Positions 30,178 through 49,726 are shown, counted from the stretch's first letter. The stretch is DNA of 64,000 nt from Candidatus Methylomirabilota bacterium (GCA_035644195.1 DASQOZ010000070.1:463-64462); one strand, 5' to 3'. Numbers and translations: made by a program. The notes: a model not told the origin generated them from the sequence alone.

Positions 30178-31164
30178 TCACCCGCCGATGGCGGTCATCA
30201 CGCGCTGCGGCTGGTAATTCTCGCGGAACAGATGTTCGGAAGGCTTTTGCACGAGCGTTTCACAAATCAATTTGTGCAAATACGCCGCGTCAATCTGCGG
30301 ACGCAACGCCAGCTTCAAATCCGTTTCCAAATGGTTGCCGAGGCACGGACGCAATTTGCCATCGCACGTCAGCCGCATCTTGTTGCAACGCTCGCAAAAA
30401 TGCAGGTCGCTCAACGCGCCGATCAAACCCATCGTCACGCCGCGTTTTTTGAGGCGAAAATATTTTGCCGGGCCAAAACCGAATGATTCCGTGAGCGGCT
30501 CCATCTCATCCTCGCGTCGCAGCTTCGCAAACAATTCCGTGACCGGGAAAAAATTCTTTTCGCTCAACATTTCCGTCAGGCTTACGGGCATCAATTCGAT
30601 GAAACGGATCGCGACATCGTGTTCCGCCGCGAAGTCGAGCAGCCGGAAAACTTCGCCGTCATTTTTCCCGCGCATCAGGACCGTGTTCAGCTTCACCGAC
30701 TCGAAACCGAGTTCTTTCACAAGCTTGATGCCGCGTAAAACCGGCGCGACATCGCCGTTCGTAATCGCGCGGTAAATCGCCGGGTCGAGAGCATCGAGAC
30801 TGATGTTGATGCGGCGCAAACCCGCGTCAAACAAGGGTTTTGCGAGTTCCTGCAATCGCGTGCCGTTCGTCGTGAGCAGCACCGATTCGACGCCCGGCGT
30901 GGCAATCAAATCGCGGATAAAATCCACCGCGCCTGGACGGATCAGCGGTTCACCGCCAGTCACGCGAAACCGTTTGAAGCCCAGCGCCGTCGTCGCGCGC
31001 ACGATGGCGAGCAGTTCGTCGTAGGCGAGAATTTCCCCGCGCGGCAGCCAGTCGGCGTAATTTTCCGGCAGGCAATACAGACAGCGTTCGTTGCACCGGT
31101 CGGTGATCGAGATGCGCAAATAGTCAACTGTGCGCCCGAACGAGTCTGTGCGATTCAAATTCAT
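30178..31164 (-). CDS. moaA: GTP 3',8-cyclase MoaA
   Basis: Radical-SAM motif CNERCLYCLPE and a C-terminal cluster region CERCNKMRLTCDGKLRPCL. Confidence 0.9.
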   Translation of the reverse strand: MNLNRTDSFGRTVDYLRISITDRCNERCLYCLPENYADWLPRGEILAYDELLAIVRATTALGFKRFRVTGGEPLIRPGAVDFIRDLIATPGVESVLLTTNGTRLQELAKPLFDAGLRRINISLDALDPAIYRAITNGDVAPVLRGIKLVKELGFESVKLNTVLMRGKNDGEVFRLLDFAAEHDVAIRFIELMPVSLTEMLSEKNFFPVTELFAKLRREDEMEPLTESFGFGPAKYFRLKKRGVTMGLIGALSDLHFCERCNKMRLTCDGKLRPCLGNHLETDLKLALRPQIDAAYLHKLICETLVQKPSEHLFRENYQPQRVMTAIGG

Positions 31165-31664
31165 TTCTTATTCGCTACTTTTCCATGCGGATCGTCACCG
31201 CGCAAGTGAGCCAACCCTTCGCGAATCGCCGGTGACAAAATTTCCAGACATTCGCGCACCGCCGACGGCTTGCCTGGCAAATTGACAATCAATGATTTTC
31301 CGCGCGTGCCCGCGACCGCGCGCGATAAAATTGCCGTCTTCACTTTGGCGAACGATTGCACGCGCATGATTTCGCCGAAGCCGGGCAGCTCCTTTTCCAA
31401 AATAATTTTTGTAGCTTCCGGCGTCACGTCGCGCACGGAAATTCCCGTGCCGCCTGTTGTCACAATTAAATCGCATTTCAACTCATCCGCGAACTTTTTC
31501 AATGCCGCCGAAATCAAATCAATTTCATCCGGCACAATCGCCGATTCAAATTTCGCCGCGCCACCAAGAAATTCGCGCAGCACGCTTTCAATTTCCGGCC
31601 CGCTGCGGTCTTCGTAAATCCCCGCGCTCGCGCGGTCGCTGATGGTGATGCGCCCGATTTTCAT
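31161..31664 (-). CDS. mog: Molybdopterin adenylyltransferase MogA/MoaB-type
   Basis: TISDRASAG...DLIVTTGGTGISVRDVTPEAT motif. 4-nt overlaps on both sides. Confidence 0.8.
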   Translation of the reverse strand: MKIGRITISDRASAGIYEDRSGPEIESVLREFLGGAAKFESAIVPDEIDLISAALKKFADELKCDLIVTTGGTGISVRDVTPEATKIILEKELPGFGEIMRVQSFAKVKTAILSRAVAGTRGKSLIVNLPGKPSAVRECLEILSPAIREGLAHLRGDDPHGKVANKK

Positions 31665-32110
31665 TCCTTGATTTTCTTTGCAACGCGGATGTTTTCAATC
31701 CGCATCGTCTTGTCCACAGCCTTGCACATGTCGTAAAGAGTCAGCGCCGCCACGCAAACGCCCGTGAGCGCTTCCATCTCCACGCCGGTCTGCGCGCACG
31801 TCTCCGCCGCGCAAAAAATCTCAATCGCCGCCGCGCGCACTTTGAAAGTCACTTCGACATGGTTCAACGCCAGCGGATGACACAGCGGGATCAATTCGCC
31901 CGTCCGCTTCGCCGCCTGGATTCCGGCAATCTGCGCCACCGTCAGAACATCGCCTTTTGGCAGCGCATTTTTTTTCAACGCGCGAATCGTTGCCGGCGCA
32001 CAAACCAATTTTCCTTCGGCCACCGCGCGCCGCTGTTGGATTGGTTTTGCGCCCACGTTCACCATGCGCGCCGCGCCCGCCGCGTTGAGATGGGAAAATT
32101 TCTTTTTCAT
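31661..32110 (-). CDS. moaC: Cyclic pyranopterin monophosphate synthase MoaC
   Basis: MVNVGAKP...KGDVLTVAQIAGIQAAKRTGELIPLCHPL is the typical MoaC core. Confidence 0.9.
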   Translation of the reverse strand: MKKKFSHLNAAGAARMVNVGAKPIQQRRAVAEGKLVCAPATIRALKKNALPKGDVLTVAQIAGIQAAKRTGELIPLCHPLALNHVEVTFKVRAAAIEIFCAAETCAQTGVEMEALTGVCVAALTLYDMCKAVDKTMRIENIRVAKKIKE

Positions 32111-32114
32111 CGAA

Positions 32115-33794
32115 TCACGAACCCATCATACTTCTCAACGGTAAAAATTCCAACTCCGCTCCCGCTTCCAACTCCGCACAATTCACCGGCACGCGAATCA
32201 GCGCGTTCGCCGCTGCGAAGCAAGTCACGTCGCCGGAACTCGACCATTTCAGCGGATGCAAATTTATTTCGCCGTTCAAAAACTCCAACCGTGCCGGCCA
32301 GAGCGTTTCGCGCGGACACGGCTTGTCGTCCAATTTTGTGGCGAGCCTGCCACGCATAAATTTTGGCGCAATTTCGCCGGTCAGTTTCGCGAGCGCCGTG
32401 GCGACGGCGAAATGAAAACAGACAAAATGCGAGAGCGGGTTGCCCGGCAAACCAAACGCCACGCGCGAACCGTTCACGCCGAAGATGAGCGGCTTGCCAG
32501 GACGCACGTTGACTTGTGAAAAAGCGGTTTCAAAACCGAGCCGTTCCAGCAGCGGACGCGTGAAATCTTTGTCGCCGACACTCGCTCCTCCGGAAATCAA
32601 AATCAAATCCGCCGCCGCGATGCGGTTCAAATCAAGTTGCGCCCACGCCGCCTCAAAATTTTCCGGCAGATGTTTCTGGTCCAAGTCACACGAAAAGTTT
32701 TGCAACAGGCCGCGAATCAAAATCGAATTGCTGTCGCGGATTTGCCCCGGCTCCGGCGTTTGATCAGGCGGAATAATCTCATCGCCCGTCGTGAAGTGTG
32801 CCACGCGCAATCGTGGACTCACCAGCGGCTGCGTGCAGCCCGCCGTCGCCAGCAACGCGAGTTTGCCCGCGTCCAGCCGCACGCCGGATTTCATGAGCGG
32901 CTGTCCAGCCTTCACATCTTCGCCGCGCTTGCGGAGGCTTGATCCACTTTCGAGTTTTGTGATTTTAATTTTGTCGCCGTTGCGCTCGACGTGTTCCTGC
33001 ATTACTACGCGCACACCGTCGCACGGCAACGCCGCGCCCGTCGCCACGCGCACCGCTTCACCGCGCCGGAGCAGGCGCGGTTTCCAATCCGCCGCGTGGA
33101 TCGTGTCCACGATTTGAAAATTGTCGGACGCATCATCGGCCAGAATTGCGTAACCATCGCGCGTGGAGCGGTCATTCGGCGGCAAATCTTCCGGCGCGCA
33201 AACCGTTTCGCGCAGCACGCGGCCAAAAGATTCTTCCAGCGGAACGCGAACCGGCGGCAACGGCTGGCAGCTCGAACTGATTTCCGAAATAGCTTCGTCC
33301 AACGATTTGTAGGAGACGACGTGAGGGGTCTCTGATTTTTTTGAAGTGAGACTCGTCACCTCGTCTCCTACAAAATCAATTGGCAACGCGCGTCGTTTCC
33401 AGATCGGCACGTCGCGTTTGAGGCCATCCATGAATTCGCCGGTCAACGCGATGGCTTCCGCGCGATGCCTGGCGGCGACGCCAAGATAAATTGCCGTTTC
33501 GCCGACGGGAATGATTCCGACGCGATGAATCACTTTGGCGGCGAGACACGGATGCCGCGTGGAAATGTCCTGAATCAGCCGCCGGATTTCGCGCGCGGCC
33601 ATTTCAGGATAGGCTTCATATTCAAGCGCGGAAATTGTTCCGCCATTTTCTTCATCACGGACCAAGCCGCGAAATTCAATCCACGCACCAAGCGCGGTCT
33701 TTGCAGACGGCCACCATTGCGGCGGAGAAATTTTTTCCGCAATCGGTCCTTTCGTGAGTTGAATTTCAATTTCCATGCGACAAAATAATTTCAT
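32115..33794 (-). CDS. MoaE-MoeA fusion protein (molybdopterin synthase catalytic subunit + molybdopterin molybdenumtransferase)
   Basis: The N-terminal roughly 145 aa are MoaE-like (EYEAYPEMA...DVPIWKR). The rest is MoeA-like (SLDEAI...RSTRDGYAI...SGGASVGDKD). The joint is the repeat-encoded DFVGDEVTSLTSKKSETPHVVSYK. Confidence 0.85.
   Translation of the reverse strand: MKLFCRMEIEIQLTKGPIAEKISPPQWWPSAKTALGAWIEFRGLVRDEENGGTISALEYEAYPEMAAREIRRLIQDISTRHPCLAAKVIHRVGIIPVGETAIYLGVAARHRAEAIALTGEFMDGLKRDVPIWKRRALPIDFVGDEVTSLTSKKSETPHVVSYKSLDEAISEISSSCQPLPPVRVPLEESFGRVLRETVCAPEDLPPNDRSTRDGYAILADDASDNFQIVDTIHAADWKPRLLRRGEAVRVATGAALPCDGVRVVMQEHVERNGDKIKITKLESGSSLRKRGEDVKAGQPLMKSGVRLDAGKLALLATAGCTQPLVSPRLRVAHFTTGDEIIPPDQTPEPGQIRDSNSILIRGLLQNFSCDLDQKHLPENFEAAWAQLDLNRIAAADLILISGGASVGDKDFTRPLLERLGFETAFSQVNVRPGKPLIFGVNGSRVAFGLPGNPLSHFVCFHFAVATALAKLTGEIAPKFMRGRLATKLDDKPCPRETLWPARLEFLNGEINLHPLKWSSSGDVTCFAAANALIRVPVNCAELEAGAELEFLPLRSMMGS
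33308..33372. repeat. GTAG...CTAC palindromic element (copy C) at the moaE/moeA joint
   Basis: tgtaggagacgacgtgaggggtctc tgatttttttgaagt gagactcgtcacctcgtctcctaca. The arm sequences are closest to copy A. Confidence 0.8.
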
Positions 33795-34030
33795 CCGCCC
33801 GACACCGGAGGAATCAACGCCACTTCATCCGAACCTGAAAAAACCGTTTGTTCATCGGCGTATTCCCAATTGCACGCGAGCCGGGTGTTTTTTTTATGAT
33901 CTGCCAGCGCGGGAATTTTTTCGGTCAAAATTTTCCAAAGCTGTTCGCCGTTCAGCGGCGATGCCGGCGCAAGTTCCATTTCGGCGCAGCCGGCCACGTC
34001 CTTGAGCTGGGCAAAAAATAAAACGCGCAT
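33791..34030 (-). CDS. moaD: Molybdopterin synthase sulfur carrier MoaD
   Basis: I prefer the internal start MRVLFFAQLKD. The C-terminus ends ...PPVSGG. An ATGA overlap joins it to the moaE start. Confidence 0.7.
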   Translation of the reverse strand: MRVLFFAQLKDVAGCAEMELAPASPLNGEQLWKILTEKIPALADHKKNTRLACNWEYADEQTVFSGSDEVALIPPVSGG

Positions 34031-34043
34031 GACGAATGAGAAT

Positions 34044-34805
34044 TCAACCCGCCGCTTCCAGCAACAATTTTCCGCCGGCAAAAATCAGCACGCCCGCCAG
34101 CACGCGGCTGAAGGTGACGCTGCTCCAGCGCCGCGCGCCGAGATGCGTGCCGAGCAGCGCGCCGATGACGGCGGGCAGCGTGAGCCAGAGCAGCGGCCCG
34201 GCGTGCGTGATTTTTTCCCAGCCCGCGCCGACGAGTCCGGCGATGGAGTTCACCACGATGAATCCCGCCGCGATGCCGCCGGTGGTTTTTGGTTTCACCC
34301 AGCGGAACAGATAAAGCAGCGGACTCAAAAAAACTCCGCCGCCGATTCCTGTCAATCCCGCCAGAAATCCCAGCACCGCGCCGACAAGCAATGCGACCGG
34401 CAAAAAACATTTTCGCACGGCGACATCATCCGTCTGCCAGCGAGAACGGAACAGCAGAATAATTCCGGCAACCGACAGAACCGCGCCCAAAATAATTTTG
34501 TAAGTTTGCGCGCTGACGTGGATTTTGCTGCCGAGAAAAGCCAATGGAATTGAGGCGATGGCGAACGAAAGAAAAATTTTCCACTCGAAATGCCCGGCCT
34601 TGTAAAATCGCCAGAACGCGATGCTGGCGACGAAAATGTTGACTATCAACACCGCCACCTTGGCGGACGCGGGCGCGACGCCGAGCAGCGCAAGCGCGGC
34701 GAGATAACCCGTCGCGCCGCCATGGCCGACGGAGGAATAAAAAAATGCGACGCCGAAAACGGCGGCGATCAGGACTGTCCAATTCAATGTCGTCAGGTCG
34801 TGCAT
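34044..34805 (-). CDS. TauE/SafE family sulfite-exporter-like membrane protein
   Basis: 253 aa with about 8 TM helices and a Gly-rich repeat pattern (GGGVFLSPLL) typical of TauE/SafE. Confidence 0.7.
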   Translation of the reverse strand: MHDLTTLNWTVLIAAVFGVAFFYSSVGHGGATGYLAALALLGVAPASAKVAVLIVNIFVASIAFWRFYKAGHFEWKIFLSFAIASIPLAFLGSKIHVSAQTYKIILGAVLSVAGIILLFRSRWQTDDVAVRKCFLPVALLVGAVLGFLAGLTGIGGGVFLSPLLYLFRWVKPKTTGGIAAGFIVVNSIAGLVGAGWEKITHAGPLLWLTLPAVIGALLGTHLGARRWSSVTFSRVLAGVLIFAGGKLLLEAAG

Positions 34806-35365
34806 GGCAAATCGGCGGGCAAGTTCCAGTTGGCAAAATATATTGCTTCGCTCGCAGGTGGTTCAACGAACCGGGCGAGGCCGGATCGGACGCATTGTCC
34901 GGCAAAATCTTTTACGGCGAAACATCCGTTTTCAAGCTGCGCCATTGCCAGCGCATGAGTTGATTTCGGATAAATCGCAACGAGCGGTTCGATGTGGCCG
35001 GACAACTTTGGAATGACCCCGCAAGTTTCCGAACAACCGCCGGCCAGCCGCTGCAAAAATTCCGCAGTCATTTCGGGCAAATCTATCGCCAGCACGAGCA
35101 GCGATGAAGTCGTTGCGGCATCGAGCGCGCTTTCGATTCCGGTGAGCGGCCCGGCATCGGGAAATTTATCCAGCAACACACGGCGCTCGAATGCGGAGTA
35201 ATTTGTCCCTGGGCAACCGGAAATAAAAATTTCTGCCGCGCCTGCTTCCCGCGCGAGTTGAATCTGCCGCGCCAGCAAAGTTTGTCCGCCAATTTTCAAA
35301 AACGCCTTGTCGCAACCCATGCGCGAGGATTTTCCACCGGCGAGAATGACGGCGCTGAAGTTCAT
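34793..35365 (-). CDS. mobA: Molybdenum cofactor guanylyltransferase MobA
   Basis: The N-terminal signature is AVILAGGKSSRMGCDKAFL. Confidence 0.8.
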   Translation of the reverse strand: MNFSAVILAGGKSSRMGCDKAFLKIGGQTLLARQIQLAREAGAAEIFISGCPGTNYSAFERRVLLDKFPDAGPLTGIESALDAATTSSLLVLAIDLPEMTAEFLQRLAGGCSETCGVIPKLSGHIEPLVAIYPKSTHALAMAQLENGCFAVKDFAGQCVRSGLARFVEPPASEAIYFANWNLPADLPCTT

Positions 35366-35820
35366 TTTTCAACGCGAAGCATTCCGCCGGTGAGAATTCG
35401 CGCACGCAGGCCGCCGCGCGCGTGCAGCAATTTTTCCGCGCCCGGCGCGATGGCGTCGTCCATCCAATGACACGGGCTGCATTCGGCCGTGCCCGCAAAG
35501 CGCACGCTCTGGATTTCAAATTCCTTGCCGATGAGCAAATTCAAATCCACGCCCGCCGTGACGACGTTTCGCCGCGTGACGCCGGGTGATTTGCCGTTCA
35601 CGCCGAGCTTGCGGCAAATGTCTTCAAAAACTTCCGATGCAAAAAAAGTGATCTGGCCTTTGTAGTCGTGCTTGAAGTCAAAAAAACGGTCATCTTCAAT
35701 TCCCCGTCCGGCCACGCAACGGATTTCCGCGCGTTCAATTAAAGGATATTCGCCCGGCGGCTGCTCGTGATGGCCGAAAAAATTGTGGCCGGGTGAAATA
35801 TAGAGATGGCGAATCTTCAC
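35362..35820 (-). CDS. MOSC domain-containing protein
   Basis: 152 aa with the conserved C-terminal Cys context ECSPCHWM and RRNVVTAGVDLN. Confidence 0.7.
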   Translation of the reverse strand: MKIRHLYISPGHNFFGHHEQPPGEYPLIERAEIRCVAGRGIEDDRFFDFKHDYKGQITFFASEVFEDICRKLGVNGKSPGVTRRNVVTAGVDLNLLIGKEFEIQSVRFAGTAECSPCHWMDDAIAPGAEKLLHARGGLRARILTGGMLRVEK

Positions 35821-35855: not shown

Positions 35856-38054
35856 TTATTTCTTCATGGCTTCGACTCGCACCGCGCAATGCTTGTAGCT
35901 TGGCTGGCGCGAATGCGGGTCAAAATCCGAGCGCGTCAGCTTGTTCGTGATGCCGTAGTGCATCGGAATAAAAATTTGCCCCGCACGCACGCCGGCCGTC
36001 ACGAACGCCGTGCATTCCACCTTCGCGCGACGCGAAATCACGCTGGCTTTTGAGTTCGGCGCGATGCCCAGCCGCGCGGCGTCGGCGGGATTGATCTCAA
36101 CGTAGGCGTTCGCCGGATAAAGCTTCCGCAGCACGTCGGATTTTTCCGTGCGCGTGTTCGTGTGCCACTGCGCGCTCGTGCCGCGACCAGTCAGCAACAC
36201 GAAGGGAAATTCCGCGTCCGTTGGTTCGGCGACCGGGCGCGGCGCATCGAATAGAAATTTCGCCTTGCCGTCTTCGTGGAAAAATTTCCCATCGGCGAAT
36301 AGGCGTCTTTCCTTTTGTAGAGACGAGTCTTTCTGAAACGGCCACTGGATTCCGCCTTCGTCGTCCAGATGTTTGTAATCCGCAATGCCGGTGATGTCGC
36401 AAGGCTGGCTGCGCGAGATTTCCTTCATCAATTGGAACGCCGCTTCCGGCGAACTCCATTTACGGAACATTTCACCACAGCCCCAATACCCGGCGACGAG
36501 CTTGCAAATGTTGAAATCGCTCAACGCCTGGCCCGGCGCGCGGCGGACTTTTTTCACAAGGCCGATGCGCCGTTCTGAATTGATGAGCGTGCCTTCCTTT
36601 TCGCCCCAGCCGGCGGCGGGCAAAAAAAGATGCGCGCGCTGCGCCGTCTCCGTCGTCGGATACAAATCCTGCACGACAAGAAATTCCAGCTTGTCCGCCA
36701 GCCGGTTGAAATTGTCCCGGTCAATCCACGAATGCGAACTGTTCGTCGCCATCACCCACAGTCCTTTGATTTTTCCGTCAGCGATGCCCTGAACGATTTG
36801 ATCATAAGCCCAACTCGGCGCAGTCGGAATTTTTTGTTCAGGAATTTCCAAAATCGAACTGATTTTTTTCCGATGCTCCGAGTTTTGAAAATCGTGTCCG
36901 CCGAGCAGACTCGTGATGTTCGCGTAAAGCCGTGAACCCATCGCATTGCACTGGCCGGTGATGGAATTGGCGCCGGTGCCGGGCCGCCCGATGTTCCCGG
37001 TCATCAGCGCGAGATTGATGATGGCCTGCGCCGTGCGTGTGGCTTCGTGACCTTGATTCACACCCATTGTCCACCAGAATGAAACCGCTTTGCCGCGATG
37101 AATCGTTTCGGCGAATTGTAAAATTTCTTCCGGCGATAAATTTGTTTCCGCCGCAACTTTTTCCAAAGTGAATTGTCGCGCGAAGGACGCGAAGTCCGCG
37201 AAGTCATTTGTATTTCGCTCAATGAATTCGAGGTCAATCCAATCATTTTGAATCAGCAGATTTGCGATGCCGTAAAGCAAAACCAAATCCGATTTTGGTT
37301 TGAGCGCGACGTGCTGCGTCGCGTTCATCGCCGTTTCCGTGCGGCGCGGGTCAACGACAATGATCTGCGGACTGTTTTTATTTTGCAGCACGCGCTGCCA
37401 CATGATCGGGTGCGCGATGCACGGATTTGCGCCGACGAAAACCAAAACGTCGCTGGCTTCAAAATCCGCGTAGGTGAACGGTGGCGCGTCGAAACCGAAA
37501 CTTTGCTTGTATGCCGTGTGCGCCGTGGCCATGCACTGCCGCGTGTTCGAGTCGCAATGCAACGCGCCCATGCCGAATTTCCACAACGCGCCGAGCAGCG
37601 CCATTTCCTCGGTGCAAATTTGTCCCGTGCCGAGAAACGCCACGTTCTCGTTGCCGTGCCGCGCCATGATGTCCTTGAATTTCGACGCGAACAATTTCAT
37701 CGCGTCGTCCCAGGTCGTCGGCTGAAATTTTCCGTTCGCGTCGCGCAGCAACGGCGTCGTGCCGCGATCCGGCGCGGACAACGGCGCGAGCGCTTCCCAG
37801 CCTTTCGGACAGGCCATGCCGAGATTGACCGGATAATTTTCGTCCGCAGTCAAGTTCACCGCCTCGCCATCCTTCAAATGGATTTTCAAGCCGCAACCGG
37901 TCGAGCAAAAACCGCAGACCATCGTGGTCGTCGCATCCGGCGCAAATTTGGCCGGAACTTTGCCGAGGCCGAACTTGCCCGGATGCAAAACCAAATCTTC
38001 CGTGAGCGGCCCGGTCCACTCGCGCAAAACCGGTTTGGAAAATTTTAATTTCAC
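35856..38054 (-). CDS. nasA: Assimilatory-type nitrate reductase catalytic subunit (molybdopterin oxidoreductase, no Tat signal)
   Basis: N-terminal 4Fe-4S motif CGFCSTGCG...ACPKG, MGD-binding regions throughout, and no RRxF signal peptide. Confidence 0.8.
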
Positions 38055-39700
38055 GCGGCGATCCCTCCCGGCATTTTTTTGCCCGCACCCGCCCGGAAAA
38101 AAACGTAGCGCGCAATGATTTCAGAAAGCAAAGTGGCCAGCGTAGCCGCGCCAGCCCAAATCAAAACCGCACCGCCAACATTGGTGATTGTGAGCAGTCC
38201 AAAAATTGTTGAAGCCACAAACAAGGCCGTCCTTATTGGCGTTGTGCGTGGAAGCAGTTCGCGGATGGCGCGGGCATTCAGATGAATCGGGCTGGCGGAA
38301 TTTTTCAATGCGGCGCGCAATTCCATTCGTCGCCAGATGAACAGGGCCGTGCGAACCACCAGCGCGGCGATTGCAAACGGCTGTGCGAAATTTATTTTTC
38401 CGAGTGCCGCAAACGTGGCGGCGGCGAACGTCGCGCCGAGCAGCAGCGTCGTGCCAAAGAAATTTCCAAACGAATATCGCGGCGACCAGATGGCGCGCTT
38501 TGTGTCCACATAAACCATGCCTGAAACAAAAATGCAGCCGAGGCCGACGACCGCCGCGCCGAGCGTGAGCGGCAGTTGCAATTTTTCCAGCGGCGGCAGC
38601 CACGCGGAAATTTTCTGGAGTAGTTCGCCGAGCTTCGGAAATTTTTGCGTGAGAAACGGCAGCCATGCGAGCGTAGTTGCAGCGGCGGCGAGCGGCGCGA
38701 ATTGATTAAACGCGATAATCTCGCGGCTCAACCAGCTCGTGCGCCAGCCCAGAAATGCGCGCCACGCTTTCAACGGCTGGCCGAGGTGCAGCGGCGCAGC
38801 AAGCAGGCCGATGTTCAGCAGCATGAACGCAGCGAGGAGCAAAACTGGCGTTGTCGGAACAATTGTCGCCGCGAGAAACATTCCGGCGGCAGCTTGCGTG
38901 AAAACCAGCATGACGACGAGCGGCCAGTGCGGATTGTCAAGGCGCGGCGCGTTGTGGTCGGCGGCGAAAACCATTCCCTTCAACGCGCGCTTTGAGAGGT
39001 AGCGCGTGGTTGGCTGGGTGATTTTCGGATTCGGCGAGTCGGCGAGGAAATTTTTCTGCGCTTCGCCGTTTTGAAACTGCGTCCTGATTTCCGCCTGATT
39101 TACCAGGGTGATTGCAATCGCGCCGTTCGGACATGACTGCACGCACGCGGGCGCTTCGCCGACGGCGAGGCGGCTCACACACATGTCGCACTTGCGGACG
39201 ATGCCGAGTTTCTCGGAATACTTCGGCACTTCATACGGACATTTCATCACGCAATACTGGCAGCCGATGCACTGGTCATCGAGATGCCGCACGATGCCGG
39301 TGACAGGGTCTTTGTCATAGGCTTTCACCGGGCAGCCGTTCAAACAGCCGGGATCAACGCAGTGATGGCACGCGGTCGTAACCGTTTGCTGAAACGGTTT
39401 TTCTTCCGCGACGCCGTGAAGCAATCCGACTTCGCGCCACGTTTCGTTTTCCTCCAGGCCGTTGAGTGAATGGCAGCCGGCGACGCACGCTTTGCAGCCG
39501 GAGCAGGCGTCGAGGTCAACTTGAAAGGCGTATTGCTCGCCGAGATTGGGCGAACGCGCGGGCATCAGCGCGCTATAAATTTTTTCTGAATGGCCGTTGC
39601 GGTCGTGGTGCTGCGAGAAGCGTTCCACCGCCGTCAACGTCCGCTGCTCGGTGAGCAATTCGTCAATCAGCGTTAAATTGTTTTCGGCGATGGATTTCAT
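38051..39700 (-). CDS. Fusion of DmsB-like 4x[4Fe-4S] ferredoxin and DmsC-like polytopic membrane anchor
   Basis: The N-terminal half carries four Cys clusters ([35 protein letters not shown]...CVQSCP). The C-terminal roughly 300 aa contain about 8 TM helices. 4-nt overlaps join it to nasA and nirA. Confidence 0.7.
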
Positions 39701-41415
39701 TCTTCGTTGGTGAAGATCGCCTGCAACGTGTTCAGGTCATTGCGCGTGGTGAATTTTTGGAACGTCTCGCCTGCTTCGCGACGGCGCAGATAACCTTTCA
39801 ATATTTTTTCCAGCGTCGGTTTCAAATCGTTCGCCGTGACACCGGAAAAAATCTGCCGACCGACCGCCTGATTTGCGCCGAAGCCGCCGCCGACAAAAAC
39901 ATGGTAGCCATCCTCGCCGCGCACTTTCACGCCAAGCAAACCGATGTCGCCCATGTAATGCTGCGCGCAGGAATTCGGGCAGCCGGTGAGATGGATGTTG
40001 ATTGGCGCGTCGAGCGTGATGCGCTTGTCGAGATAATCGGCGAGTTCCAACGCGTGGCCTTTCGTGTTCGACTGCGCGAATTTGCAAAATGAATTTCCCG
40101 TGCAGGCGATCAATCCGCCGCGCAACAAACTTTGCTGTGTATCGAAACCGATTTTGCGCAACGCCTTCTTTACGGTCTCGACGTAAGCGTCCGGAACATT
40201 TGGGATGATGAAATTCTGCCAGACGGTCAGCCGGATTTCGCCCGAACCATAAAGGTCGGCAATCTCCGCGACGCGCAGCATCTGCTTCGGCGTGATCTGG
40301 CCGACGGGCATGGCGACGCCAACGTAGTTCAAACCTTTTTGCTTTTGCGGAAAAATTCCGATGTGCGAGTGTGGTAATTTTGCATCGCCGTATTCCACCT
40401 TCAAATCCGCCGGCGTGCGTTGCAATTTGTAGCCGAGAATTTTTTCCGCTTCGCCAAGATATTTTTCCAGCGGCCACGTTTCGAGCAGATGTTTCAGCCG
40501 CGCTTTCTTGCGGTCGCCGCGATTTCCGTTGGCAATATAAATGCGGACGAGCGCGACGATGACTTTGTTCAATTCCGCCGCTTTCACCAAAACGCCGAGG
40601 TCGCGTGCAAATGTCTTGTGGCCGGTTGCGCCGCCGAGCGCAATTCGGAAGAAAACTTCATCGCCAACCTTCACGGCTTTCGCGCCGATGTCGTTCGTGT
40701 CCTCGACCGTGCCAATAAGTCCGCCGCCGTCGAAGGCGATGTTGAACTTGCGGGGCAAATCGTAAAACGAACGGTCGTTGATAATGATTTGCGCAAGTTC
40801 CTGAACGAGCGGTTGCACGTCAATCAATTCGTGCGGGTCAATTCCAGCGGTGGGATTCGCGGTGAGATTGCGGATGTTGTCCGCGCCTGCGCCGCGCGTG
40901 TGCAGGCCAACGCTCTGGATTCGCCGTAAAACTTCCGGTGCGTCTTTCGGCTGAATCAAACGCATCTGAAAATTTGCGCGCGTGGTGATTTGCACATATC
41001 CACTGGTCAAATCCTTCGCGACGGCGGCGAGTTCGCGCAGTTGAAACGTTTTCAGCACGCCGCCGGGAATACGCAGCCGCGCCATGAACGCCTCCTTGTT
41101 CGGCGTCAGAAAAAAAAGTCCGTTCCATTTGAAGCGGAAAATCTCCTCCTTGTCCGGCGATTTATTCGTGACGGCGTTTTCAAGAATCTGGTCATAGGCG
41201 TCGAGCGGGTGCAATTCGTGTTTGACACGCTCCTCGAAAATCAAATCGTCGAGCGAAATTTTTTTCTCTGCTGCGGGAACCGGCGCGACATCGCCAAACG
41301 AAACGCCGTGCGCGGCAAGACCGGCGAAAAATCCCTCAAGATATTTCCGCTGCTCGTCGTTGAGCGGCTCGCCGTTGATGTGCTGGACGGGAATTTCCAT
41401 TTTACTGCTTTTCAA
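39697..41415 (-). CDS. nirA: Sirohaem-type nitrite/sulfite reductase hemoprotein (NirA-like)
   Basis: RFKWNGLF, the RIPGG repeat modules and the Cys cluster CTGNSFC...CPNSC. I infer nitrite as the substrate from gene context. Confidence 0.75.
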   Translation of the reverse strand: MKSSKMEIPVQHINGEPLNDEQRKYLEGFFAGLAAHGVSFGDVAPVPAAEKKISLDDLIFEERVKHELHPLDAYDQILENAVTNKSPDKEEIFRFKWNGLFFLTPNKEAFMARLRIPGGVLKTFQLRELAAVAKDLTSGYVQITTRANFQMRLIQPKDAPEVLRRIQSVGLHTRGAGADNIRNLTANPTAGIDPHELIDVQPLVQELAQIIINDRSFYDLPRKFNIAFDGGGLIGTVEDTNDIGAKAVKVGDEVFFRIALGGATGHKTFARDLGVLVKAAELNKVIVALVRIYIANGNRGDRKKARLKHLLETWPLEKYLGEAEKILGYKLQRTPADLKVEYGDAKLPHSHIGIFPQKQKGLNYVGVAMPVGQITPKQMLRVAEIADLYGSGEIRLTVWQNFIIPNVPDAYVETVKKALRKIGFDTQQSLLRGGLIACTGNSFCKFAQSNTKGHALELADYLDKRITLDAPINIHLTGCPNSCAQHYMGDIGLLGVKVRGEDGYHVFVGGGFGANQAVGRQIFSGVTANDLKPTLEKILKGYLRRREAGETFQKFTTRNDLNTLQAIFTNEE

Positions 41416-43166
41416 TACACGTCGCGTTGATAGCGCTTGTCGGTTTTCAACTTCGCGACATAAGCCTTCGCGTCGTCAGCGCTTTTGCCGCCGGCGGTCT
41501 CGATGATCTTGTGCAGAGCATCGTCCACGTCCTTCGCCATGCGGCTCGCATCGCCGCAGACGTAGAAATGCGCGCCAGCTTCGAGCCACGACCACAGCTC
41601 GACGGCGTTTTCGAGCATCCGGTTCTGGACGTAAATTTTTTCTTTCTGATCGCGGGAAAATGCCGTGGACAATTTCGTGAGATGACCGTCGGAAAACATT
41701 TTTTCCAATTCGTCGCGATAATAAAAATCCGTGGCGACGCGCTGCTCGCCGAAGAACAGCCAATTTTTTCCGGTTGCGCCAACAGCGCGGCGCTCGTGCA
41801 AAAATGCGCGGAACGGCGCGACGCCGGTTCCCGGCCCGACCATGATGATTGGCGTCTCCGAATTCGTTGGCAGACGAAAACCGTGCGATGTCTGCACAAA
41901 AACGGGAACGGGATTTTCGCTGGCGTGGTCGGCAAGAAAAGTCGAAGCCAAACCTTTGCGCGCCCGCCCGTGAGATTCGTAGCGAACGATACTGACGGTC
42001 AAATGAACTTGTCCGGCGTGCGATTTGGGGCTGGATGAAATGGAGTAAAGTCGCGGCGCGAGCTTTTTGAGCAGCGAAACAAATTCTTTCGGCGACAATT
42101 TTGCATCCGGCGTTTCGAGCAGCAAATCAATGACTTCGCGTCCCCAAAGAAAATTTTTCAAATCGTCCTTGTGTCCAGGCGCAAGCAAATCTCGCAAAAC
42201 AGAATTGCGTTCACCGATGAATTTCAAAAGTTCCGGCGATGGTTTGGTGATGTCGTAAAATTCGGCGAGCGCCTTGCGAATCGGGATTTCACCGCCGTTG
42301 TTTGGCAAAACCATTTCGTCGCCGGAAAAATTCAGCGAATGCAAAATATCCGCGACGAGTTCAGGGCAATTTTTCGGAAAAATTCCGAGCGCATCACCAA
42401 CTTCGTAATTCAAACCCGAATCTTCGAGCGAGATTTCAAAATGGCGCGTTTCTTTTTCCGAACCGTCGGCGGTCAATTTGCGGTTCGTCAGCAGGCGTGC
42501 GGGAAATGGATTGTTTCTGTTATAGGCGAGCGCAGGCGTCACATTGGAAGAGACATCCAATGCAACAACAGGCGGGACGCCTGCGCTCCCAAAAAATTTC
42601 AGAACGCCATTCTGCCAATTTTTTGCCTTCGCTTCGTAATCCAAATCGCAGTCGTCGAGCGGATGAATTCGTTTCGCGCCGAGTTGTTCGAGGCGCGCGT
42701 CAATTTTTTTGCCGGCGGCGCAAAAATTTTCGTAATTGGTGTCGCCAAGCGCGAGGACGGAATAATTCAGGTGTGACAGCGATTTTGCGACGTCGGTTTG
42801 CAGCCAGTCCCAAAACGCCTGCGCGTTGTCGGGCATATCGCCGTCGCCATAAGTGCTGGTGACGACGAGCAGATTGGTTTCCTTGCTCCAATCAATCTTG
42901 GCGTGTTCGGCGGCGTCCACGACGCGCGAGTTGCAGCCACGCGATTTTGATTCTTTCGCGATTTGTTTCGCGAGTTTTTCCGCCGTGCCGGTCTGGCTGC
43001 CGAATAAAATCAAAAGTGGAATTGTTGCGGAGTTTTTTTCAGAACCGTTTTGATTTGCGGGAACGAAATTTTTCCCCGCGAGCAGTCCGGCCATGTAGCC
43101 GTTGAGCCACAGGCGTTGATCCGTGCCGAATGGCGCGGTTTCCGGGATGAAAGTCGTCGTTTGCAT
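41412..43166 (-). CDS. CysJ-like NADPH-flavoprotein reductase (flavodoxin + FAD/NADPH domains)
   Basis: Start MQTTTF at 43166. Flavodoxin region ILFGSQTGTAEKLA, FAD-binding RLYSISSS and NADPH-binding GPGTGVAPFR. Confidence 0.8.
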   Translation of the reverse strand: MQTTTFIPETAPFGTDQRLWLNGYMAGLLAGKNFVPANQNGSEKNSATIPLLILFGSQTGTAEKLAKQIAKESKSRGCNSRVVDAAEHAKIDWSKETNLLVVTSTYGDGDMPDNAQAFWDWLQTDVAKSLSHLNYSVLALGDTNYENFCAAGKKIDARLEQLGAKRIHPLDDCDLDYEAKAKNWQNGVLKFFGSAGVPPVVALDVSSNVTPALAYNRNNPFPARLLTNRKLTADGSEKETRHFEISLEDSGLNYEVGDALGIFPKNCPELVADILHSLNFSGDEMVLPNNGGEIPIRKALAEFYDITKPSPELLKFIGERNSVLRDLLAPGHKDDLKNFLWGREVIDLLLETPDAKLSPKEFVSLLKKLAPRLYSISSSPKSHAGQVHLTVSIVRYESHGRARKGLASTFLADHASENPVPVFVQTSHGFRLPTNSETPIIMVGPGTGVAPFRAFLHERRAVGATGKNWLFFGEQRVATDFYYRDELEKMFSDGHLTKLSTAFSRDQKEKIYVQNRMLENAVELWSWLEAGAHFYVCGDASRMAKDVDDALHKIIETAGGKSADDAKAYVAKLKTDKRYQRDVY

Positions 43167-43173
43167 CACGTCA

Positions 43174-43212
43174 TGAGAAAAGCGAGACGCGCCCCACCTT
43201 GCGATGGGGCGC
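43174..43212 (-). terminator. Rho-independent terminator-like hairpin after the porin gene
   Basis: On the minus strand, GCGCCCCA-tcgcaagg-TGGGGCGC is followed by gtctcgcTTTTCTC. It lies in the 68-nt gap before the cysJ-like start. Confidence 0.45.
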
Positions 43213-43234
43213 GGCGACGGGAGGAACATCGTCG

Positions 43235-44728
43235 CTAAAAATTGAGTGTAAATTGAACATAGACGTAATCCGCGTCGCGGTCGCCGCCGACGCCTGCGAG
43301 TGATTGCTGAATGTATTTGCCCGTGAAGAAATGGCCGTAACCGGCTTCGATTTGCGCGTAGCGCGTGAGCGCGTAGCCGGCAATCAAATCCAATTCGGTG
43401 CCGACAAATGGGCTGTTGCCGGAATTAATGCCGTAGCCGCCGGTCGTGCGAGGCGCACCACCGACATTGTAAAAAAAGTCGTGCGTATTCGCGAGCCAGA
43501 AGCCGTGACCTTCTAGCGCGACGCTCAAACGCGACGTCGGTTTGAGCGTCAGTTCGCCGCGAACGTCCTGGATGTTTTGCAGCGAGACGAAATCCATGTA
43601 GCCGTAAAATTTGTGGTTCGTCGGAAACAAATTGTCGAACGTGCCGTGCGTGCCATCGGCTTTATTGTCATCTCCGGAGCTATAGGTGTATTCAATTCCT
43701 AGCCGTGGCGTCGCCCACCAATCGGAAAATGTGTAACCGCCTTGCGCGATAAACATGAAAGCATCCTGTCGCAGGCGCGGAGCGGTCAACGCCGGTTTGG
43801 TTGGATCGGCGAAATCGCCGAATTGATACGCGCCTTCGAGCGAATAATCGTAGTTGCCCAATTCGCCCGGCTTGGATTTCAAGCGTCCGCCGATTGTGTA
43901 AATGTCGCGCGCGGTCGGCTGCGGAAATTGCGGGCTTGGCTCCGTGTTGATAGCTTTGCGGTCGGCGTTGCGCGACAGAAAATAAACGTCGAGAATCGTT
44001 TTGGGAATTTTTGTGCTCGTCGCATAGACGCCGGAAAACCAATCGTGCGTGTTGTCCACGTCGAAGCCGCCGTTTTCAGGAATGACCGGATAGCCGGTGA
44101 AAAAGTCCGCGCCGAAAAATTCATTTTGCCAGCGGACTTTCGCCGTGTCGAACGCCCGGCCGATGTTGTTCCAGCCATATGCACCGATGAGCCGTTCTTC
44201 ACCGTAGGACAATTCCTGCCGTCCGGCTTTGAGCGAAAGCGGAAATTCCTTGTGATTGCCGATGGTGAAATACGCCTGATGCAAATCAATTGCGTCGGCT
44301 TCCGGTCCATTTTCCTTTCGCTTCACCGTGCCGGGAATGGCGGGCGCATTTGCGTAGGCGAAACGTTCGTCGCTCAAAGCCACGCTGCTTTGCGCTTCGG
44401 TGTAGATGCTCCACCACTTTTCTGTGTAGCCGATGTGAAGGCGCAAACGATTCAAAAAATAATCGTTGACCATGTCCGCGCCGTGATCACGAAAATCCAC
44501 GGAATCGGCGTGACCTTGAATTGCAAAACCGGATTTGGATTCGTAACGGAAACGGTCGTTGCCGCCGAAATCCCATTGGTTCATGTAGGGATTCTGTGCG
44601 CGCAGGTATTCGTTGAGGAATCCCTGGAACGGCGTGGGCGGCGGCGGCGGCGTGTATTGAGCGTGGACTTGGTTGAGGGCGGCGAGCACGAGCGCTCCTG
44701 CCGACAATGTTTTCAGGGTTGGCTTCAT
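43235..44728 (-). CDS. Outer-membrane porin (alginate-export/nitrate-cluster porin-like)
   Basis: The start at 44728 gives the signal peptide MKPTLKTLSAGALVLAALNQVHA. The sequence is beta-rich with alternating aromatic residues and ends in a terminal F. Confidence 0.6.
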   Translation of the reverse strand: MKPTLKTLSAGALVLAALNQVHAQYTPPPPPTPFQGFLNEYLRAQNPYMNQWDFGGNDRFRYESKSGFAIQGHADSVDFRDHGADMVNDYFLNRLRLHIGYTEKWWSIYTEAQSSVALSDERFAYANAPAIPGTVKRKENGPEADAIDLHQAYFTIGNHKEFPLSLKAGRQELSYGEERLIGAYGWNNIGRAFDTAKVRWQNEFFGADFFTGYPVIPENGGFDVDNTHDWFSGVYATSTKIPKTILDVYFLSRNADRKAINTEPSPQFPQPTARDIYTIGGRLKSKPGELGNYDYSLEGAYQFGDFADPTKPALTAPRLRQDAFMFIAQGGYTFSDWWATPRLGIEYTYSSGDDNKADGTHGTFDNLFPTNHKFYGYMDFVSLQNIQDVRGELTLKPTSRLSVALEGHGFWLANTHDFFYNVGGAPRTTGGYGINSGNSPFVGTELDLIAGYALTRYAQIEAGYGHFFTGKYIQQSLAGVGGDRDADYVYVQFTLNF

Positions 44729-44762
44729 GATTTTTGTTTTTGGGGTTGGCATTTTGTTTGGT

Positions 44763-45632
44763 TCAAGCATGGTTGAATGCGGTTAAATTATTTTTGACGG
44801 CTGGCGGCAAAACGTTTTCCACGGGCGACTGTTCGATTTTTGGCATGACGGTTTTCCGATGCGCGCGGACTTCGAGAAATTCAATCAACTGCTCGCGCAG
44901 TTTGTAATAATCGGGATGCTCCATGACGGCCTTGCGCTCGCGCGGGCGCGGAAACTTCACGTCCATGATTTCGCCGACTGCCGCCGCCGGGCCGTCGGTC
45001 ATGCAAACGATGCGGTCGCTCAAGAACAACGCCTCGTCCACGTCATGCGTGACCATGAGCGCGGTGATTTTATTTTTGCGCCAGAGTTCGATGAGGACTT
45101 GCTGCAATTCGTAACGCGTGAGCGAGTCGAGCATCCCAAACGGCTCGTCGAGCAAAAGCATTTTCGGCTTGAGCGCAAACGCGCGCGCGATGCCGACGCG
45201 CTGCTTCATGCCCTGCGAAAGTTCGGCGGGCTTTTTATGCATCGCATCGCCGAGGCCGACGACGGTGAGATAGTATTCGACGATTTCGCGCCGCTCCTGT
45301 TTGCTTGCCGTGAAAAAGACTTGCTCGACGCCGAGCAGCACGTTTTCGTAGGCCGTCATCCACGGCAGCAGCGAAGGCGATTGGAAAACCACGCCGCGAT
45401 CCGGTCCCGCGCCGGAAAGCTCACGCCCGGCCAGAATGATTCCGCCGTCGGAAATTTCATTCAATCCGGCCAGCATCGAAAGCACCGTGGATTTTCCGCA
45501 GCCGGAATGCCCGATGAGCGTGACAAATTCCCCTTTCTGGATGTTCAGGTTGAAATCCTTGACGATCACCGCGTCGCCCTTTGGCGTCGGATAAACCTTC
45601 GCAAGGTTCGAGAGTTCGACGTAATTGCTCAC
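44763..45632 (-). CDS. nrtD: Nitrate/sulfonate/bicarbonate-type ABC ATP-binding protein (NrtD-like)
   Basis: Walker [10 protein letters not shown], signature LSQGMKQR and Walker B LLLDEPFG. Confidence 0.8.
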
Positions 45633-46534: not shown

Positions 46535-46539
46535 AAAAT

Positions 46540-47325: not shown

Positions 47326-47326
47326 T

Positions 47327-49676: not shown

Positions 49677-49726
49677 GTGCGTTTTTTTGTTCACTCGTCG
49701 CGGTTTTTCAGCCGCCGCCTGATGAT

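Follow-up and report, generated by a model that had tools for sequence, protein, structure and literature searches.

The locus raises the question of how an assimilatory nitrate reductase obtains its electrons when the gene next to it encodes a membrane iron-sulfur protein. Textbooks treat assimilatory nitrate reductases as soluble proteins whose electrons come from ferredoxin, flavodoxin or NAD(P)H. The initial annotation described a NasA-like catalytic subunit without a Tat signal, preceded by a gene for a single polypeptide combining a four-cluster ferredoxin with a membrane anchor. We evaluated this pair by profile searches, structural modelling and comparison of related loci.

Operon layout and gene neighbourhood

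In the window (the whole 64-kb stretch of DNA that was analysed), the pair belongs to an operon that otherwise contains genes for nitrate uptake, nitrite reduction and Moco synthesis, all on the minus strand:

30178-35820, minus strand: cofactor genes downstream of the catalytic-subunit gene and in the same orientation (Pfam), comprising the next four entries together with MoaC, MoaB/Mog and MoaA
32115-33794, minus strand: MoaE-MoeA fusion
34044-34805, minus strand: TauE-family membrane protein
34793-35365, minus strand: MobA
35362-35820, minus strand: MOSC
35856-38054, minus strand: NasA/NapA-type Mo-bisPGD catalytic subunit, 732 aa (Pfam, NCBIfam, PDB match and motifs)
38051-38950, minus strand: C-terminal half of the fused protein (residues 251-549 plus stop), an 8-TM DmsC-type anchor
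38951-39700, minus strand: N-terminal half of the fused protein (residues 1-250), a 52-aa leader and a DmsB-like ferredoxin domain
39697-41415, minus strand: NirA-family sirohaem/[4Fe-4S] nitrite reductase (NF007126, 709.5 bits, cut-off 523)
41412-43229, minus strand: CysJ-like diflavin (flavodoxin-FAD-NADPH) reductase (Pfam and NCBIfam)
43235-44770, minus strand: outer-membrane porin of the alginate-export family, within the operon (Pfam PF13372, 209 bits)
44763-48895, minus strand: NrtD, NrtC, NrtB and NrtA of a nitrate ABC transporter (TIGR01184, TIGR01183, NMT1_2)

NrtB, NrtC and NrtD score above the curated nitrate-transporter cut-offs (TIGR01184, 336 and 303 bits for a cut-off of 291.8; TIGR01183, 224 bits for a cut-off of 209), and NirA scores above its own. 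The NrtA open reading frame as listed is too long at its 5' end, with a twin-arginine-like NRREFLGKA in its interior. The claimed overlap of 4 nt between the fusion gene and the catalytic gene is present in the sequence (...GCC GCG TGA over GTG AAA, with a GGGAGGG Shine-Dalgarno upstream); the NirA and fusion genes likewise overlap by 4 nt (ATGA), and NirA is translationally coupled to the fusion gene. The CysJ-like reductase is the probable donor to NirA. The operon lacks a NasB/NasG-type gene, and Pfam and NCBIfam analyses of its genes revealed no other candidate nitrate reductase; denitrification or Nrf genes were not found near the pair within the window.

The catalytic subunit and its fused partner

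The catalytic subunit contains the Pfam domains Molybdop_Fe4S4, Molybdopterin and Molydop_binding, and its NCBIfam matches (formate dehydrogenase alpha, 478 bits; NasA_Halo, NF041323, 450.6 bits for a cut-off of 1000; NasC, NF047855, 421.6 bits for a cut-off of 1100) are all under the equivalog cut-offs. The NasA_Halo and NasC models are lineage-specific, so these scores put the subunit outside those lineages, not outside their function. Scores were much lower with the PhsA model (135.6 bits versus 420-480 for the Nas and Fdh models) and with TIGR02166, of the DmsA/YnfE type (123.9 bits for a cut-off of 777.7), and the NarG model was absent among the NCBIfam matches. The top PDB match is NapA from D. 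desulfuricans (2NAP/2JIO, 347 bits), and identity to annotated canonical nitrate reductases is around 35%. We identified the FS0 cysteines (C47/C50/C54/C82), a Mo ligand, C174-M175, aligned with NapA C140-M141 where formate dehydrogenases have (Se)Cys-His, and R375 as the equivalent of NapA R354; these NapA-like ligand and Arg features occur in all 67 of the 67 neighbours of the fusion. The subunit also has a conserved N-terminal extension of 45 aa. There is no twin-arginine in residues 1-236, the first RR being at residue 237, and the N-terminus has no hydrophobic signal region. Both the absence of a Tat signal and the assignment to the nitrate reductase type were thus borne out, and the motifs support a cytoplasmic Nas/Nap-type nitrate reductase.

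The partner, of 549 aa, is indeed a single polypeptide with the architecture originally proposed. Pfam detects Fer4_11 at residues 107-196 and DmsC at residues 257-535 (46.8 bits, cut-off 22.3); the C-terminal half alone reaches 50.5 bits with DmsC, covering model positions 6-273 of 275, and matched no NCBIfam model. Besides one unrelated Cys, the protein has 16 Cys in four groups of the CxxCxxCxxxC type (66/69/72/76, 111/114/119/123, 144/147/150/154 and 171/174/186/190), all 16 invariant among 107 sequences from four phyla. The iron-sulfur half is collinear with E. coli DmsB, whose P80, C102 and Y104 align with P124, C147 and Y149, also invariant in the 107 sequences; its top NCBIfam match is TIGR02951, DmsB (127 bits, equivalog cut-off 214), whereas the NarH model gives the fused protein only 38-41 bits against a cut-off of 524. 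Hydropathy and an AlphaFold model agree on eight TM helices. E. coli DmsC His65, Ser82, Ser85 and Glu87, described as quinol-site residues (PMC8076601), align with H305, S322, S325 and E327; H305, S322, W323, S325, R326 and E327 are invariant in the same 107 sequences, as is the C-terminal MPG tail, and the 52-aa leader is family-specific. According to the mutational evidence cited in that review, quinol is no longer oxidised when H65 is replaced, and E87 is important for coordinating it.

An AlphaFold model from a 12-sequence alignment had an unusable iron-sulfur domain (pLDDT 59.8) and gave weak Foldseek scores; with the 107-sequence alignment, the model reached a pLDDT of 88.9 and a pTM of 0.88. 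With this model, Foldseek retrieves FdnH, ArrB and PsrB (TMt 0.74) for the iron-sulfur half and ActC and PsrC for the membrane half, and the fusion as a whole resembles chains B and C of the polysulfide reductase structure 2VPW. Similarity of the membrane half to quinol-interacting anchors, on which the proposed coupling depended, is therefore found in profile, residues and fold. Current annotations name the fusion 'formate dehydrogenase iron-sulfur subunit' (JGI) or 'DMSO reductase chain B'.

None of the 107 fusion sequences contains an export signal or Tat motif, and in all 107 the K+R content is higher on the side that bears the iron-sulfur domain (17.6 versus 2.8 on the other side). The K+R comparison is 19:5 in the fusion and 3:6 in E. 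coli DmsC. Since the bias is reversed relative to DmsC and no export signal is present, the iron-sulfur domain, the putative menaquinol-site loop (H305...E327) and the MPG tail are placed on the cytoplasmic side, where the initial annotation had put the catalytic subunit.

Conservation of the gene pair

Sequence searches scored more than 7,995 proteins of the fusion family at E<=1e-5; at E<=1e-30, clustering at 50% identity gives 713 groups, of which the best 150 are all long matches sharing 40-55% identity with the fusion. To survey co-occurrence, we inspected gene context at the 80 genome matches nearest to the fusion and at six additional family members, taken from a pool that holds over 500 more genome matches as well as weaker representative clusters. 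A NasA-like gene is directly downstream of the fusion in 70 of the 74 related loci with room for it, and adjoins the fusion in all six of the more distant contexts. The size of the family and the pairing in 70/74 loci indicate that the fusion is not a product of chance. The 4-nt overlap is frequent in related loci, although gaps derived from longest-ORF starts are noisy (over-extended) and only the recurrent value of -4 is meaningful. All sampled contexts are nitrate-assimilation clusters, and no other molybdoenzyme was seen beside the fusion among sampled members.

The pair persists while both the nitrite reductase (NirA plus CysJ, or NirBD) and the transporter (ABC or MFS) vary. For instance, it occurs with NirBD and MFS in Myxococcota (L085), in Gimesia (L086) and in L092, with NirB and NirD in Fibrobacterales, and with NirA, CysJ and MFS in L091. 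The CysJ-like gene adjoins NirA in 47 of the 49 loci that carry it; it had no match in the NirBD-type loci L049, L050, L053, L077, L085 and L086, and the genes called in L090 and L092 do not include it. In at least 14 loci, MOSC and MobA are again found next to the NasA-like gene, and the porin was found in about 28 of the 80 related loci. The fusion lineage is widespread in Verrucomicrobiota and Planctomycetota and also occurs in Myxococcota and Fibrobacterota. The plasmid collection contained no full-length fusion, only separate DmsB and DmsC gene pairs and iron-sulfur subunits.

Electron donor and relation to known systems

We favour, with somewhat better than even confidence, a reading of the two genes as a two-polypeptide, three-module complex iron-sulfur molybdoenzyme, a cytoplasm-facing menaquinol:nitrate oxidoreductase serving assimilation and constructed on the plan of DmsABC and SoeABC. 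The 8-helix DmsC-type domain would bind menaquinol at the TM2-TM3 loop (H305, S322, S325 and E327) on the cytoplasmic face, and the DmsB-like domain, covalently joined to it, would conduct the electrons along its four [4Fe-4S] clusters. From there they would enter the NasA-like subunit at its N-terminal [4Fe-4S] and end at Mo-bisPGD (ligand Cys174), the site at which nitrate taken up by NrtABCD would be reduced to nitrite; NirA, fed by the CysJ-like NADPH flavoprotein, would convert nitrite to ammonium. We infer complex formation between the fusion and the NasA-like protein, the use of quinol as donor and the electroneutrality of the anchor reaction. The host phyla are menaquinone organisms, and with MKH2 at about -74 mV and nitrate at +420 mV the electron transfer is strongly exergonic. 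The electrons for reducing the nitrate used in growth would probably come from the respiratory quinone pool. That an entire clade of NasA-type assimilatory nitrate reductases has its link to the menaquinone pool built in, by way of a DmsB-DmsC fusion that faces the cytoplasm, seems to us an evenly balanced proposition; the stronger version, in which the anchor itself moves protons outward, we regard as quite unlikely.

The fusion might instead be a membrane-tethered relay devoid of quinol chemistry, passing NAD(P)H electrons from a CysJ-like, NirB or FNR-like protein through its clusters to NasA, with the DmsC domain as a mere anchor near the nitrate transporter. The operon does contain a CysJ-like gene, a conceivable alternative donor; NasA domains are elsewhere fused to CysJ-like modules (annotated 'bifunctional nitrate reductase/sulfite reductase flavoprotein'), and in Gimesia (L086) a small FNR-like gene is directly upstream of the fusion. 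However, a pure tether would give no reason for the DmsC quinol-site residues H305, S322, S325 and E327 to be invariant in four phyla. Moreover, the CysJ-like gene co-varies with NirA (47/49) and not with the pair, which lowers its weight as donor to the nitrate reductase; in the Myxococcota locus L085 and in L092, for example, NirBD is accompanied by no separate flavoprotein gene, and the FNR-like gene appears in only 1 of 82 loci. We consider such a relay unlikely. A further question is whether the catalytic subunit reduces nitrate at all, or whether the pair is a dehydrogenase that oxidises formate, sulfite or some other compound, passes the electrons to quinone and merely accompanies nitrate genes. 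The formate dehydrogenase alpha model is the top NCBIfam match, below its cut-off, the JGI name of the partner points the same way, and the operon includes a gene of the TauE/SafE 'sulfite exporter' family. Yet the Cys-Met ligand is that of NapA and not the (Se)Cys-His of formate dehydrogenases, and this motif together with the gene context led us to drop the formate dehydrogenase reading; PhsA/Psr-type models, of the clade grouped with SoeA (PMC10100899), score far lower (135 bits), the operon shows no other gene that could supply the nitrate reductase, and the pairing recurs in all sampled nitrate-assimilation clusters. A non-nitrate enzyme is therefore highly improbable.

NarGHI serves assimilation in mycobacteria, and the pair might similarly be of dual use, mainly an electron sink or a system for nitrate respiration at low oxygen, maybe conserving energy through NrfD-like proton pathways and with assimilation as a by-product. 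The architecture is of the respiratory type, and ion-conducting pathways have been proposed for NrfD-like subunits (PMC8076601). Nevertheless, assimilatory NirA or NirBD and genes for nitrate uptake accompany the pair in every sampled locus, a quinol site facing the cytoplasm would form a redox loop only with an outward route for protons, and the window has no denitrification or Nrf genes nearby, so we judge a primarily respiratory role to be decidedly improbable. The proposed menaquinol-linked assimilatory complex would share with NarGHI its reaction and sidedness, that is, membrane quinol oxidation, a four-cluster iron-sulfur subunit and cytoplasmic Mo-bisPGD nitrate reduction. Unlike the Asp-ligated NarG, however, the catalytic subunit is Cys-ligated, of the Nas/Nap type and unrelated at the subfamily level; NarI, moreover, is a di-haem b protein whose quinol site lies at the outer face, giving a redox loop, whereas the DmsC-type anchor is haem-free, with its site predicted at the inner face.

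One close parallel is E. coli DmsABC, which has the same three modules, the order B then C, a four-cluster DmsB-like ferredoxin and a haem-free 8-TM anchor, with H65, S82, S85 and E87 having equivalents here. In our module, though, B and C form a single polypeptide, the catalytic gene follows B-C instead of preceding it, neither a Tat signal nor a DmsD chaperone gene is present, and the catalytic subunit is of the Nas/Nap type (124 bits to the DmsA model, cut-off 778). Likewise, Dms A-B is Tat-exported and periplasmic, whereas the module is predicted to face the cytoplasm with an inverted charge bias, and the context is assimilation and not anaerobic respiration. Of the NrfD/DmsC-type complexes described so far, only SoeABC of Allochromatium vinosum and Aquifex aeolicus has been proposed to face the cytoplasm, its anchor SoeC being DmsC-like but inverted and carrying His65 and Glu87 (PMC8076601). 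Its subunits also lack signal peptides; this likeness is drawn from published descriptions. In contrast to the reaction proposed here, Soe runs from substrate to quinone (sulfite oxidation), its subunits are separate, and SoeA belongs to a Sre/Psr-related clade, being grouped with bSreA (PMC10100899), and not to Nas/Nap. The plasmid matches H10 and H13, considered as Soe loci, proved on inspection not to be such.

Canonical NasA/NasC/NarB and NasN enzymes are also cytoplasmic Cys-ligated Mo-bisPGD proteins with an N-terminal [4Fe-4S], and their genes are grouped with nitrate uptake and nitrite reductase genes. Their donors, however, are ferredoxin, flavodoxin or NAD(P)H, through NasB/NirB/NasG or Flp, or a fused CysJ-like module, whereas the conserved partner here is a membrane iron-sulfur fusion. 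The initial annotation drew this contrast with the usual assimilatory donors. In a specialist phylogenetic study, Wells et al. 2020 (PMC7331816) stated explicitly that canonical four-cluster and membrane-anchor subunits do not occur with any member of the Nas/Aio/Nap clade; our module contradicts this statement for a large, environmentally abundant bacterial group. A full-text literature search found neither a published link between a DmsC/NrfD anchor and an assimilatory nitrate reductase nor relevant work on nitrate reductases of Planctomycetes, and the arrangement, common in several phyla, has apparently never been described before. Standard annotation names the subunit as part of a formate dehydrogenase or DMSO reductase, so ordinary pipelines would miss the link, and metagenome genes with those labels would need reassignment to nitrogen assimilation.

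If the proposed mechanism is true, quinol-dependent assimilatory nitrate reductases would have their first example here, and SoeABC would no longer be the only NrfD/DmsC-type complex facing the N-side, the list of such complexes gaining an inward-facing assimilatory member as its second N-side case. Cultured, genetically tractable carriers exist, e.g. Gimesia and Rhodopirellula (R. baltica), and Verrucomicrobium is another carrier in culture. Electrons would then enter via respiratory dehydrogenases, coupling nitrate assimilation to energy conservation in abundant soil, freshwater and marine bacteria; with quinol as donor, Planctomycetes and Verrucomicrobia would assimilate nitrate at a cost and with a redox coupling unlike those given in textbooks.

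Operon organization and neighbouring genes

A long minus-strand operon, whose genes were identified by Pfam and NCBIfam, encloses the genes for a Tat-less, 732-aa NasA-like molybdoenzyme and for a 549-aa protein (hereafter, the fusion) joining a DmsB-like ferredoxin to a DmsC-type membrane anchor.

Genes of the nitrate operon
48579-49745 (-), NrtA-like cytoplasmic protein (NMT1_2, 388 aa, leaderless, NasS-like)
47327-48895 (-), NrtA (NMT1_2)
46540-47325 (-), NrtB (TIGR01183, 224 bits; cut-off 209)
45629-46663 (-), NrtC (TIGR01184, 303 bits; cut-off 291.8)
44763-45632 (-), NrtD (TIGR01184, 336 bits; cut-off 291.8)
43235-44770 (-), alginate-export-type outer-membrane porin (Pfam)
41412-43229 (-), CysJ-like diflavin reductase (Pfam/NCBIfam)
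39697-41415 (-), NirA-family nitrite reductase (NF007126, 709.5 bits; cut-off 523)
38051-39700 (-), fused FeS-membrane protein
35856-38054 (-), NasA-like molybdoenzyme
35362-35820 (-), small MOSC protein
34793-35365 (-), MobA
34044-34805 (-), membrane protein of the TauE/SafE 'sulfite exporter' family, encoded between mobA and the genes for Moco biosynthesis
30178-35820 (-), in order: MOSC, MobA, TauE-family, MoaE-MoeA fusion, MoaC, MoaB, MoaA

Overlaps of 4 nt (ATGA and GTGA) join the NirA, fusion and NasA-like genes, and a GGGAGGG ribosome-binding site lies upstream of the NasA-like GTG start. The ORFs, domain searches and junction sequence thus confirm the coordinates, overlap and domain content reported in the initial annotation.

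Several other features of the operon deserve mention. NrtA holds an internal twin-arginine-like stretch, NRREFLGKA, and is probably an exported protein with an over-called start. A LysR-family regulator gene (49739-50719, +) diverges from the operon on the side of the NasS-like gene, and the domain searches showed no ANTAR/NasT partner for the NasS-like protein. The porin gene, located between nrtD and the reductase genes, recurs in approximately 28 of 80 related nitrate-assimilation loci (e.g. L003, L006, L011 and L064), which suggests a dedicated outer-membrane nitrate channel. Likewise, MOSC and MobA genes, which here directly follow the NasA-like gene, accompany it on one strand or the other in at least 14 related loci (e.g. 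L010, L011, L025 and L046); the MOSC protein could have a role in handling the cofactor or in the detoxification of N-hydroxylated compounds, and the TauE/SafE-family protein is possibly an anion (nitrite?) exporter. Near their N-termini, NirA (residues ca. 19-36) and the CysJ-like protein (residues ca. 36-52) contain similar motifs, DEQRKYLEGFFAGLAA and DQRLWLNGYMAGLLAG, respectively, perhaps a docking element common to both.

At the 3' end of the operon there is a tRNA-Ser(CGA) gene (29203-29292, -), followed by a TTG-start ORF of 196 aa (29309-29899, +) with no Pfam match that, by eye, looks like the N-terminal portion of a tyrosine integrase, possibly left over from an integration event. 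Elsewhere in the window, a 1138-aa ORF (25672-29088, +) without Pfam match aligned with 6K31 (1344 bits) and 8E1U (1298 bits), a clear similarity by which its predicted product is a PPi-dependent PEP carboxykinase. Together with a 920-aa H+-pyrophosphatase (61014-63776, -), this hints at a PPi-based energy metabolism in this organism.

The catalytic subunit and its fused partner

The NasA-like protein contains the Pfam domains Molybdop_Fe4S4, Molybdopterin and Molydop_binding, and scores nearly equally with the NCBIfam models for formate dehydrogenase alpha, haloarchaeal NasA and NasC (478, 451 and 422 bits), although below the equivalog cut-off of all three, including the curated NasA and NasC. 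Among proteins of solved structure, it matches best the monomeric Desulfovibrio desulfuricans NapA (347 bits), in a collinear alignment over residues 39-728 that places C174-M175 and R375 opposite NapA Cys140-Met141, the Mo ligand, and Arg354. Formate dehydrogenases have (Se)Cys-His at the Mo-ligand position. The motifs N/T-T/S-R-x-C-M and TGQxN(A/S)xGxR were present in all 67 NasA-like ORFs adjoining fusion homologues. The protein has no twin-arginine before residue 237 and no hydrophobic leader. Its N-terminus is extended by 45 residues (LLRxWxGPLTxxLVxxPGxFGLGxVPxRxxPDATT in consensus) that are conserved across its clade, within which identity is 59-85%, versus ca. 35% to annotated canonical nitrate reductases.

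Residues 53-250 of the fusion are collinear with E. coli DmsB, contain the full set of 16 cluster cysteines and match best the NCBIfam model TIGR02951 (DmsB). P124, C147 and Y149 align with DmsB Pro80, Cys102 and Tyr104, which, according to work from the Weiner laboratory, reportedly surround the cluster nearest DmsC. Ahead of this domain there is a leader of ca. 52 residues (residues 1-52 of the fusion, within 38954-39700, -), TLIDELLxEQxxLTAVERF...H...Y..L.P, which E. coli DmsB lacks. It is shared by members from different phyla, with F28, Y42 and P47 invariant, and is predicted by AlphaFold, at lower confidence, to be helical.

The membrane half (residues 257-535) covers nearly the whole Pfam DmsC model (50.5 bits), with no match to Pfam NrfD. 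In an alignment with the chromosomal E. coli DmsC (L082), H305, S322, S325 and E327 are opposite His65, Ser82, Ser85 and Glu87, the quinone-site residues of DmsC and SoeC (Calisto and Pereira, PMC8076601); mutational evidence reviewed there indicates that replacing His65 blocks quinol oxidation and that Glu87 is important for quinol coordination. All four residues were invariant in an alignment of 107 sequences from Verrucomicrobiota, Planctomycetota and Myxococcota, as were the flanking W323 and R326, the 16 cysteines and a C-terminal M-P-G. The proposal in the initial annotation that this half is a quinol-interacting anchor is thus supported by both the DmsC match and the aligned residues.

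A shallow alignment yielded a poor AlphaFold model, and the 107-sequence alignment was used instead, producing a model with eight long helices (pLDDT 88.9, pTM 0.88). In Foldseek, matches of the N-terminal half were FdnH, ArrB and PsrB (2vpw_B, TMt 0.74), and those of the C-terminal half were ActC and PsrC (2vpw_C, TMt 0.60), so that the predicted fusion looks like two chains, B and C, of a single solved quinol-linked enzyme placed end to end.

Membrane orientation, distribution and gene context

None of the 107 fusion sequences contains a signal or Tat motif in its N-terminal domain. The FeS-side loops (pre-TM1, TM2-3, TM4-5, TM6-7 and the C-terminus) contain on average 17.6 Lys+Arg versus 2.8 on the opposite side, a bias of the same sign in 107/107 sequences. 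The corresponding loops of E. coli DmsC, in which the side towards DmsB is periplasmic, served as a control and have 3 versus 6, a bias opposite to that of the fusion from the window (19 versus 5). Together, the lack of a signal, the charge bias and the opposite DmsC control place the NasA-like subunit, together with the FeS domain and putative quinol pocket of the fusion, on the cytoplasmic side; as judged from sequence, the anchor has the opposite orientation to DmsC, as proposed for SoeC in SoeABC (PMC8076601).

More than 7,995 fusion homologues were scored, with at least 588 species-level genome matches, the closest being Limisphaerales/Verrucomicrobiia MAGs, by which the window probably comes from a member of the Verrucomicrobiota. 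Among clusters at 50% identity, 713 matched (E<=1e-30), and the best 150 of the 713 are all long and 40-55% identical to the fusion. Databases list the homologues under generic names: 'DmsC/YnfH family molybdoenzyme membrane anchor subunit', 'Anaerobic dimethyl sulfoxide reductase chain B' or 'formate dehydrogenase iron-sulfur subunit'.

We compared gene context in the 80 closest genome loci and six further contexts; in the counts, L085 (Myxococcota) and L086 (Gimesia aquarii) were added to the 80. A NasA-like gene directly follows the fusion in 70 of the 74 loci in which 1.5 kb or more was available. In two of the four exceptions it lies further downstream, at ca. 0.8 kb (L049) and ca. 5 kb (L065), and in the other two (L056 and L074) the sequence that remained gave no match. 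No other molybdoenzyme type adjoined the fusion in the sampled loci (80 closest plus six further contexts); the association with non-nitrate molybdoenzymes that the initial annotation regarded as contrary to its interpretation was not seen there. NirBD-type reductases substitute for NirA and the CysJ-like protein in at least six loci, as in some of the following gene orders.

Gene orders in other genomes
Myxococcota (L085): NirBD-MFS-fusion-NasA-CobA
Gimesia aquarii (L086): MFS-NirBD-FNR-like-fusion-NasA
Fibrobacterales: Moco genes-NirD-fusion-NasA-NirB
Further genome (L091): MFS-NirA-CysJ-fusion-NasA
Further genome (L092): MFS-NirBD-fusion-NasA

The constant unit is the pair of fusion and NasA-like genes, with interchangeable nitrite reductase and transporter. 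The Gimesia FNR-like gene (8225-8995 of L086; 256 aa, FAD_binding_6/NAD_binding_1), found in 1 of 82 loci, could be a substitute or second site of electron entry. In M. fumariolicum SolV, nitrate-induced genes include those for the nasA transporter (Mfumv2_1294), nirD (1295), nirB (1296), nasC (1297) and tauA (1299), and Mfumv2_1298 is missing from that table (PMC5623727); its product could be a fused FeS-DmsC partner.

A putative menaquinol:nitrate oxidoreductase

From the cofactor sites, sidedness, conserved quinol-site residues and obligate pairing, the best-supported reading is that the pair would be a cytoplasm-facing menaquinol:nitrate oxidoreductase giving nitrite to the assimilatory nitrite reductase. 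The NasA-like subunit and the fusion would form a complex, with quinol as electron donor via the anchor; the carrier phyla use menaquinones, which fits a DmsC-type site. The main rival, that the fusion is a mere tethered wire from a flavoprotein, is weakened by the invariance of the quinol-site residues and because the CysJ-like protein tracks NirA rather than the pair: in the 80 closest loci plus L085 and L086, NirA occurs in 55 and the CysJ-like protein in 49, adjoining each other in 47. As a menaquinol:nitrate oxidoreductase, the anchor reaction would be electroneutral, with quinol protons released and nitrate-reduction protons consumed on the same side. Electrons reaching the quinone pool via NDH-1 or other dehydrogenases would already have added to the proton-motive force, whereas Nas enzymes fed directly by NAD(P)H or ferredoxin would conserve nothing.

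The module can be described as an inside-out DmsABC whose catalytic subunit is of the Nas type. It falls outside DmsABC in the strict sense, lacking Tat export and having another type of A subunit and fused B and C; it resembles NarGHI in its proposed function and SoeABC in orientation, being a member of neither. Assimilatory nitrate reductases are absent from the NrfD-like complexes listed in a 2021 review, which gives SoeABC as the sole inward-facing case (PMC8076601), and according to Wells et al. (2020) canonical four-cluster or membrane-anchor subunits accompany no member of the Nas/Aio/Nap clade (PMC7331816). We found no description of the pairing in the full-text collection searched, which covers a minority of subscription-journal papers. 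In all, sequence, structure prediction and comparative genomics support the initial interpretation of a Tat-less NasA-like subunit coupled to a quinol-linked fusion, which would represent a CISM architecture recruited to assimilation, widespread yet unrecognised in annotation.
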